Shown here: positions 4,519 through 5,534 of the stretch, in pieces
How the letters are laid out: each line of letters starts with the position of its first letter
Position numbering within the stretch: the stretch's first letter is position 1
Source of the DNA: Schmidtea nova
Lineage: Eukaryota
DNA length: 64,000 nt
Direction of reading: 5' to 3'
Assembly: GCA_044892505.1 (NCBI GenBank)
Contig: CM097882.1
Span: 342,798,001-342,862,000 of the forward strand
Notes under the pieces: model-generated
Seen by the model: the letters and a program-made list of their open reading frames with translations, nothing else
The model's database searches: none
Told to the model about the DNA's origin: nothing
Translations under genes and position numbers: made by a program

Positions 4519-5534
4519 GATGGTTCTTTATATCCGTGCCACTTTACATAGTATTGTTTATCCTTACCCACCATTTTAGATTTCAGGATTTTTTGAATTC
4601 TAAATATTGTCGGTGGAGGAATAACTTGTAATTCTTGTTCGTAGAATTTCCCACTGATTATATTGTTATCAGAGTCACAAATAGTATACATGACAGGATT
4701 CTGCACTGTGTTGACTTTCGATATTTGATATACCTCATCACTCCAATTATTATCAAAATTTTTAATGAATGGCGATGCACTAATCTTGCTAATTCGAACA
4801 TGATCACCAATTTTATATTTTGGTTTCTTTACTTTTACTTCACTCACAATATTTTCAGTATCAACTACTTCTGCCGGTTTCCTGCCATTTATACCCCGAT
4901 GAGCACTATGATTATAACTATGAATCAATTGAGGTAAAACATTAATCCAGGTTTTATTGCCTTTAAAAACAAAGTATTTTTTCAATCGATCACGCAAAGT
5001 TCGATTAAATCTCTCGACATGAGCGGCTTTGAATTGCGAGAATACCGAATAATGATTTATTCCCTTGATAACTTCCTTGACTTTACTGTTGTAAAATTCC
5101 TTTCCTAAAAAATATTAAAAATGTATAAATTTAAATTAAAATTTACCCAAATCGGTTTGTAAATTAGTTGGCCGATCCTTTTTCATCATTGTCTTGATAG
5201 CGATTGCCATGTCATTAGCTGATTTCGATTTTACTCCAATTGCTCGAGCAAATCTACTGTAAACATCAATACATGTTAAAATATACTTGTACCCCTTGTT
5301 AATAGCGGAATACGGAATCATTTCCATCAAATCCATTTGCCACAAATCATTGATTCTATATGTTTTATATGCTCGAGTTGGAAACCGTTTCAACATCGGT
5401 TTGTTTAGACTGTATGCAAGTTGCCCCGATAACCAACTTTGTGTCTGTTGTTTCGACTTCTGTGCTTTTTTCCTTAGCTTTTCGACTCCACCGAAACCGG
5501 CGTCGTCTTTTGGGTTCGTCCAGATCTTCTCCAT
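4488..5534 (-). CDS. Maverick retroviral-like (c-)integrase with C-terminal chromodomain; two exons 5534-5147 and 5104-4488, 334 aa
   Basis: WQMDL, YKYILTCIDVYSRFA, QTDLG|KEFYN after splicing, HVERFNRTLRDRL, YNHSAHRGI, chromodomain YYVKWHGYKEPSWI; exon lengths 388+617=1005 nt keep the frame. Confidence 0.92.
5105..5146 (-). other. 42-nt phase-1 spliceosomal intron in the integrase gene
   Basis: GTAAAT...TTTTTTAG, nearly all A/T, contains an in-frame TAA; removal restores the QTDxGKEFYN consensus. Confidence 0.88.

Follow-up and report, generated by a model that had tools for sequence, protein, structure and literature searches.

Gene content of the window copy

The first 10,491 positions of the window, by which we mean the whole 64,000-nucleotide stretch of the Schmidtea nova genome analyzed here, hold a rearranged copy of a Maverick/Polinton element with the following features.

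1-4423: inverted duplication with arms 1-1980 and 2444-4423, 100% identical, continuing to the left of the window
1313-3111: two truncated, head-on major capsid genes (1313-2620, forward strand; 2407-3111, reverse strand) at the fold-back centre, assigned by homology
3108-3473, reverse strand: conserved 121-aa ORF, mirrored at 951-1316 on the forward strand
3466-4518, reverse strand: conserved 350-aa ORF behind the integrase, no Pfam match, mirrored at 5-958 on the forward strand
4488-5104, reverse strand: integrase exon 2, with the catalytic Glu, the C-terminal chromodomain (Chromo, 1.8e-05), the stop codon and a two-codon deletion that marks the intron lineage
5105-5146, reverse strand: putative GT-AG intron in the integrase catalytic core, 42 nt, phase 1
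5147-5534, reverse strand: integrase exon 1, with the first two catalytic Asp, residues 68 and 128 (rve PF00665, 2.6e-08)
5590-6135, reverse strand: conserved basic ORF between ATPase and integrase, no family match
6156-6779, reverse strand: packaging ATPase (A32-like), an uninterrupted ORF (Pox_A32, 5.3e-07)
6873-7340, forward strand: TBP-like cargo gene (PF00352, 4.8e-14)
7550-7600, forward strand: candidate 51-nt GT-AG intron that would join an ATG at 7519 in frame to the ORF at 7609-8121
9750-10491: terminal repeat region with tandem repeats; identity with the far arm extends up to 10491, and the end itself lies under N

A second, identical integrase with an identical intron is found to the left of the window, on the other arm of the fold-back. 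The complete copy is a derivative of about 16.6 kb (window 1-10491 plus L051:3869-10000) that carries two identical integrases and cut capsid genes, and it has neither polymerase nor protease. Judged by its sequence, this copy is non-autonomous, for reasons other than the intron. The TBP-like gene occurs in all sampled intron-bearing subfamilies at 51-96% identity; in the intron-free sister family, the four upstream stretches examined showed no such gene. Both families repeatedly contain pairs of integrases that face each other at a distance of 6-7 kb, in many cases about 7.25 kb, and fold-back derivatives therefore appear to multiply.

The integrase, with D68 and D128 in exon 1 and the Glu in exon 2, is of the retroviral-like DDE type of Polintons/Mavericks. 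Across copies, the morphogenesis genes of such elements are also present, namely the ATPase (Pox_A32), a cysteine protease (Peptidase_C5) and a DJR-like capsid protein, whose full-length homologue resembles, at a score of 0.98, clusters in which 15-30% of the members carry PF21738 DJR-like. By its position, the 350-aa ORF is possibly a minor capsid protein; one subfamily (L118, L145, L155, L110) has two tandem paralogues of it. Copies other than that in the window hold a Polinton/Maverick-type polymerase ORF of about 1,450 codons with its motifs, which we take to be Exo I-III and Pol A-C, in order. Comparison of this ORF with solved structures, Pfam and PHROGs gave no match other than an endonuclease VII-like insert located near residues 700-760 (L137:4405-8763, L149:5563-9918).

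Of ten other copies checked at both ends, eight have AGTAG..CTACT termini with a 6-bp target duplication, and they span 14.8-18.3 kb. The intron-bearing elements therefore did integrate. A search of viral contigs returned one distant relative. Elsewhere in the window, broken remnants of hAT-type transposases (DUF4371, Dimer_Tnp_hAT) are located at 40679-41242 and 45489-47584, and a histone-fold fragment at 60924-61325.

An AT-rich insert in the integrase catalytic core

The 42-nt insert has a GC content of 7%, compared with 39% and 33% in the flanking exons, and contains no further GT or AG. It splits a Gly codon in phase 1, two positions past the second catalytic Asp. When read unspliced, it brings two in-frame TAA codons, and the ORF then runs from 5534 to 5136 (132 aa) without the catalytic Glu and the chromodomain. 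Both the GT-AG insert with an in-frame stop behind the second Asp and the truncated 132-aa retention product had been described in the original prediction, and both are borne out. Beyond the chromodomain, exon 2 gives a weak rve_3 match in the profile search. Among 120 homologues in the matches listed (of 2,380), 119 show a spacing of exactly 3 residues from this Asp to the EF motif, so that the 42 nt represent an insertion.

The earlier comparison of its size with that of a 57-nt candidate host intron at 30019-30075, which is flanked by open frames of 56 and 79 codons, does not hold up well, the integrase intron being 15 nt shorter.

Distribution of the insert across genome copies

A degenerate pattern of the integrase junction was run genome-wide, with the reversed pattern as a control. 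This yielded 10,612 matches with a 37-66-nt insert and none in the control; these matches are not copy numbers, as fold-backs count twice. The same kind of search returned 54 junctions with a 7-36-nt insert and 180 with a 0-30-nt insert, about 165 of the latter insert-free (control 0 in both). By junction matches, the intron lineage thus outnumbers the intron-free lineage by about 65:1.

Close relatives of the window copy are nearly uniform. All 40 scored matches of a 501-nt query were identical at 100%, insert included, as were all 150 scored matches of exon 1 at the protein level. Among the close copies fetched, 50 of 50 carry the insert at one shared site in 16 variants of 40-46 nt, and the exon-1 protein is identical in all 30 close copies found by protein, despite the variation in the insert. 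As an unbiased sample, we took the first 40 places, in position order, among the matches listed. Every one of these inserts starts with GT and ends with AG; they comprise 27 distinct sequences of 40-45 nt, and 33 of the 40 are not a multiple of 3 in length. One further copy has an insert of 48 nt. Over the 27 variants, near-invariance is confined to the ends (0.96-1.0 at the first four and the last three positions), and no interior motif is conserved beyond AT-richness. A branch-like YTRAY is present in 18 of the 27, which is weak evidence in such AT-rich DNA. The GT..AG ends, an AT/T-rich 3' tract, a fixed site and phase and a free interior together match a U2-type intron.

These counts bear on the least favourable reading of the insert, a one-off inactivating insertion or an assembly error that mimics GT-AG. 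The window copy is indeed a rearranged derivative. However, the same-site insert occurs in all 50 close and all 40 position-ordered copies, and contigs from four public runs (one study, possibly the source; type unlabelled) cross it with the same length variants; no cross-insert joint was listed among them, which, for runs of unlabelled type, bears neither way on splicing. Together with the 10,612 genome matches, which exclude the one-off insertion put forward as the refuting case, this leaves such a reading with practically no probability.

Shorter inserts were considered as candidate ultra-short introns (16-29 nt). This was rejected, as 37 of the 41 examined copies among the 54 short-insert matches have a broken exon and appear as deletion products; both exons are open in only 4 of 41 copies with a 16-36-nt insert, compared with 26 of the 40 position-ordered copies. 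Inserts of 16 and 24 nt nest within subfamilies of 42-44 nt. About 20 inserts of 33-36 nt belong to one old subfamily and may be either recurrent deletions or a real shorter form, and the floor of intron length is therefore soft. At G000:C3:135177773-135236611, four copies about 20 kb apart share an identical 32-nt insert, likely through tandem duplication of a single deleted copy. Motif counts used to find the host's minimum intron length gave no signal (31, 50 and 46 against 29, 38 and 30 in controls, three length bins).

Selection on the second exon

dN/dS was calculated for 11 intron-bearing representatives, with exon-2 dS above 0.1 in 49 of 55 pairs and dS reaching about 2.7. Over these 49 pairs, the median dN/dS is 0.115 for exon 1 and 0.099 for exon 2 (maximum 0.157). 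Because this indicates purifying selection behind a mostly frame-shifting insert, exon 2 has been translated throughout the history of the lineage, and removal of the insert restores the selected frame, as expected of a U2 intron.

Without splicing, the insert would have to be bypassed by stop read-through or ribosome hopping, or else the copies would be dead and rely on the integrase of the intron-free family to move them in trans. The 42 nt of the window copy are divisible by 3, the insert has Gly codons on either side, and an intron-free family with open integrases does exist. Read-through is nevertheless rejected as a simple account, since most insert lengths are not multiples of 3 and shift the frame; furthermore, the invariant positions are the GT and AG rather than codons, and purifying selection on exon 2 across subfamilies is unexpected for dead passengers. 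We regard these routes as very improbable. Splicing is the only simple account of a selected exon 2 in this position, and the insert is very likely a real, inherited spliceosomal intron.

Probable origin and history of the integrase intron

In a quick protein tree of copies with open exons, the 54 intron-bearing rows fall on one side of a single branch (SH-aLRT 98), adjoined by 7 intron-free rows from the same genome and surrounded by 39 intron-free rows from metagenomes. A second, independent marker agrees with this tree. More specifically, all 121 readable intron rows share a two-codon deletion in exon 2, which produces a short loop, as against 0 of 45 readable intron-free rows (21 from this genome and 24 from metagenomes; 33 rows were unreadable and some loci were fetched twice). 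Since the intron co-occurs with this deletion, which intron-free rows lack, the integrase intron was probably gained once.

Conversely, the intron could be old and have been lost from the sister families. A DNA tree that includes decayed copies recovers the intron rows as one clade in only 4% of bootstraps (monophyly is not rejected, p-AU 0.25) and leaves the base of the own-genome clade open, and the protease intron described below is common to the sister family and one metagenome relative, which indicates that the wider lineage was already spliced. Against an ancient origin, the integrase intron is absent from 31 of 31 readable metagenome junctions and from 119 of 120 homologous proteins listed, and both intron-free families of this genome retain the ancestral long loop. 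An ancient intron thus seems most improbable. No exact intron-loss copy, which would have proved splicing indirectly, was found, the short loop being seen in 0 of the 21 readable intron-free rows of this genome. Three intron-free copies with junction codons like those of the window were considered as exact losses and proved to come from an older, long-loop family.

The reading of a single gain is further informed by the empty site, which reads GGT in 15 of the 31 metagenome loci with a readable junction. It is often G|GTAAAG, and together with the following Lys codon it is already a donor. In the intron-bearing sample, the split codon is G|GT in 20 of 40 copies, repeating GT behind the acceptor, and in half of the copies exon 2 opens with the same GTAA as the intron. 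A plausible origin is the insertion of AT-rich DNA with a short direct repeat, which would have been spliceable at once because the empty site was already a donor and exon 2 often repeats the GTAA of the intron.

Three database proteins from other data sets (P0123, P0124, P0150) end 1-4 residues past the intron site and group within the intron-bearing subfamilies in the tree (98/95). They likely represent the same intron outside this genome.

Probable introns in the protease and polymerase genes

The integrase is probably not the only interrupted core gene. In the protease gene (Peptidase_C5), a GTAAG donor lies five bases behind the start codon; the position of the putative intron can be given as follows.

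L120:4352-4390 and equivalents, L157 and L203: putative protease intron, 37-40 nt, five bases behind the start codon

An intron of this length is found in 32 of 33 gene-holding copies (in one it was called at 49 nt), none of which has an in-frame Met upstream of the protease that would serve without splicing. Its pattern has 8,828 genome matches, with 0 in the control. The protease gene is likely split by a real intron. The same intron is present at seven loci of the sister family that lacks the integrase intron and in the one metagenome locus that reaches the gene, and for this reason it predates the integrase intron. Intron-free matches to the protease motif were considered as intron losses; 10 of 10 fetched were not protease genes. 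Compared by eye, the integrase and protease introns have nothing beyond their ends in common.

In 28 of 28 readable copies, the polymerase frame opens after an AT-rich tract ending in AG, without an upstream Met, and the polymerase probably also needs splicing. The protease intron and the conserved polymerase acceptor are new here. Ahead of the polymerase frame (L120:5500-6900 and equivalents), more AT-rich GT..AG blocks lie between small exon-like stretches. The 51-nt candidate intron at 7550-7600 recurs in a single further copy, which is from the same subfamily. An automatic intron scan over ten copies was noisy.

Proposed constitutive splicing and regulated retention

In the Drosophila P element, retention of the third intron truncates the transposase before its catalytic core is complete. 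This retention is regulated by tissue and gives a defined repressor. The original prediction drew on the P-element repressor as a parallel and proposed that regulated retention of the integrase intron could gate integration versus virion-only cycles. Such a switch is unsupported here, because the virion protease and probably the replicative polymerase also need splicing, and because the retained product is not conserved. In the 40 position-ordered copies, it takes 10 different tail lengths, with 3-20 extra residues in 38 copies and read-through of 118 and 225 residues in the other two, so that no conserved truncated product of the P-element type was found. Furthermore, the sister family multiplied without an integrase intron.

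Regulated retention would mean that splicing occurs only in some cell states, for example stem or germ cells, and thereby gates integration, while the truncated exon-1 protein may repress. The intron does separate the two catalytic Asp from the Glu, donors are weak in some subfamilies (GTTATA in 4 of 40), and the intron lineage exceeds the intron-free one about 65-fold in number. At 37-46 nt, the integrase and protease introns are below the 57-nt mode published for a planarian, and planarian stem cells are reported to use frame-breaking intron retention (PMC4978528). However, the introns retained in planarian stem cells are described in the same source as longer than others, not shorter, the interior of the integrase intron has no conserved motif beyond AT-richness, and the need for splicing is not specific to the integrase. 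The published control of planarian Polintons, which are reported to be held down by PIWI, acts at the chromatin level (PMC8532177). Overall, we consider regulated retention unlikely. It is likewise quite doubtful that near-minimum-length introns in integrase, protease and polymerase form a host-state gate and that gain of the integrase intron enabled the roughly 10,000 copies, some 65 times the intron-free sister. Chance alone may or may not explain this excess.

The reading we prefer, and find likely, is a constitutively spliced U2-type intron that was gained once in one Maverick/Polinton lineage and passed on to about ten thousand copies. The element would be transcribed in the nucleus, where the host spliceosome would take the intron out to give the full D-D-E-chromodomain integrase. 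Unspliced RNA would be a dead end, with an early stop or a frameshift, and likely degraded. The introns of the lineage are held short, a packaging limit likely setting the upper bound on their length and a spliceosome limit the lower one, and poor splicing may damp integrase output.

Comparison with known mobile elements

The element shares with animal Polintons/Mavericks a chromodomain integrase, protein-primed polymerase motifs, an A32-like ATPase, an adenain-like protease, a double-jelly-roll-like capsid, terminal inverted repeats, a 6-bp target duplication and a length of 15-18 kb. As the original prediction stated, the core genes of these elements are generally described as intronless. 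For vertebrate Mavericks this is stated in a survey that accepted only copies with intronless ORFs as intact (PMC8097293); those of nematodes are described likewise, with introns in cargo genes only (bioRxiv 10.1101/2022.07.12.499685), and endogenous mavirus-like elements are likewise called intronless in their core genes (PMC8547959). In contrast, thousands of copies here have a split integrase and protease and probably a split polymerase.

The accessible parts of PMC10748475, PMC12220804, PMC8502044 and PMC6431247 hold nothing on spliceosomal introns in core genes, and those of a bioRxiv planarian genome paper note Maverick expansions and leave their introns unmentioned. Within the scope of our literature search, which ended short of subscription journals, Repbase and the 2006 Polinton paper (the last two may mention introns), no report of inherited introns in Polinton core genes was found.

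Since Maverick core genes are described as unbroken frames and mined as such, a spliced lineage would score as decayed even though it is dominant here, making up perhaps a tenth of the assembly (a rough figure from 10,612 junction matches at 15-18 kb each). A spliced integrase and protease would tie the cycle of the element to nuclear transcription and the host spliceosome. The system also offers a rare case of intron gain, with an empty ancestral site, a point of gain and thousands of descendant alleles within one genome, in which intron origin, minimum spliceable length and retention are testable by ordinary RNA-seq.

Spliceosomal introns inside Polinton-like elements are also known from dinoflagellate Maverick-Polinton-like proviruses, which contain introners (PMC11957031). 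These are mobile, intron-making transposons, mostly gained after single-copy integration according to that source, whereas here one fixed intron is inherited by an amplifying lineage and shows no sign of an introner. Ginger1 DNA transposons resemble the element described here in that their Gypsy-like DDE integrase genes are interrupted by introns (1-4, mostly GT-AG) whose positions are conserved; unlike this element, they are simple cut-and-paste transposons without capsid, polymerase and protease genes (PMC2836005).
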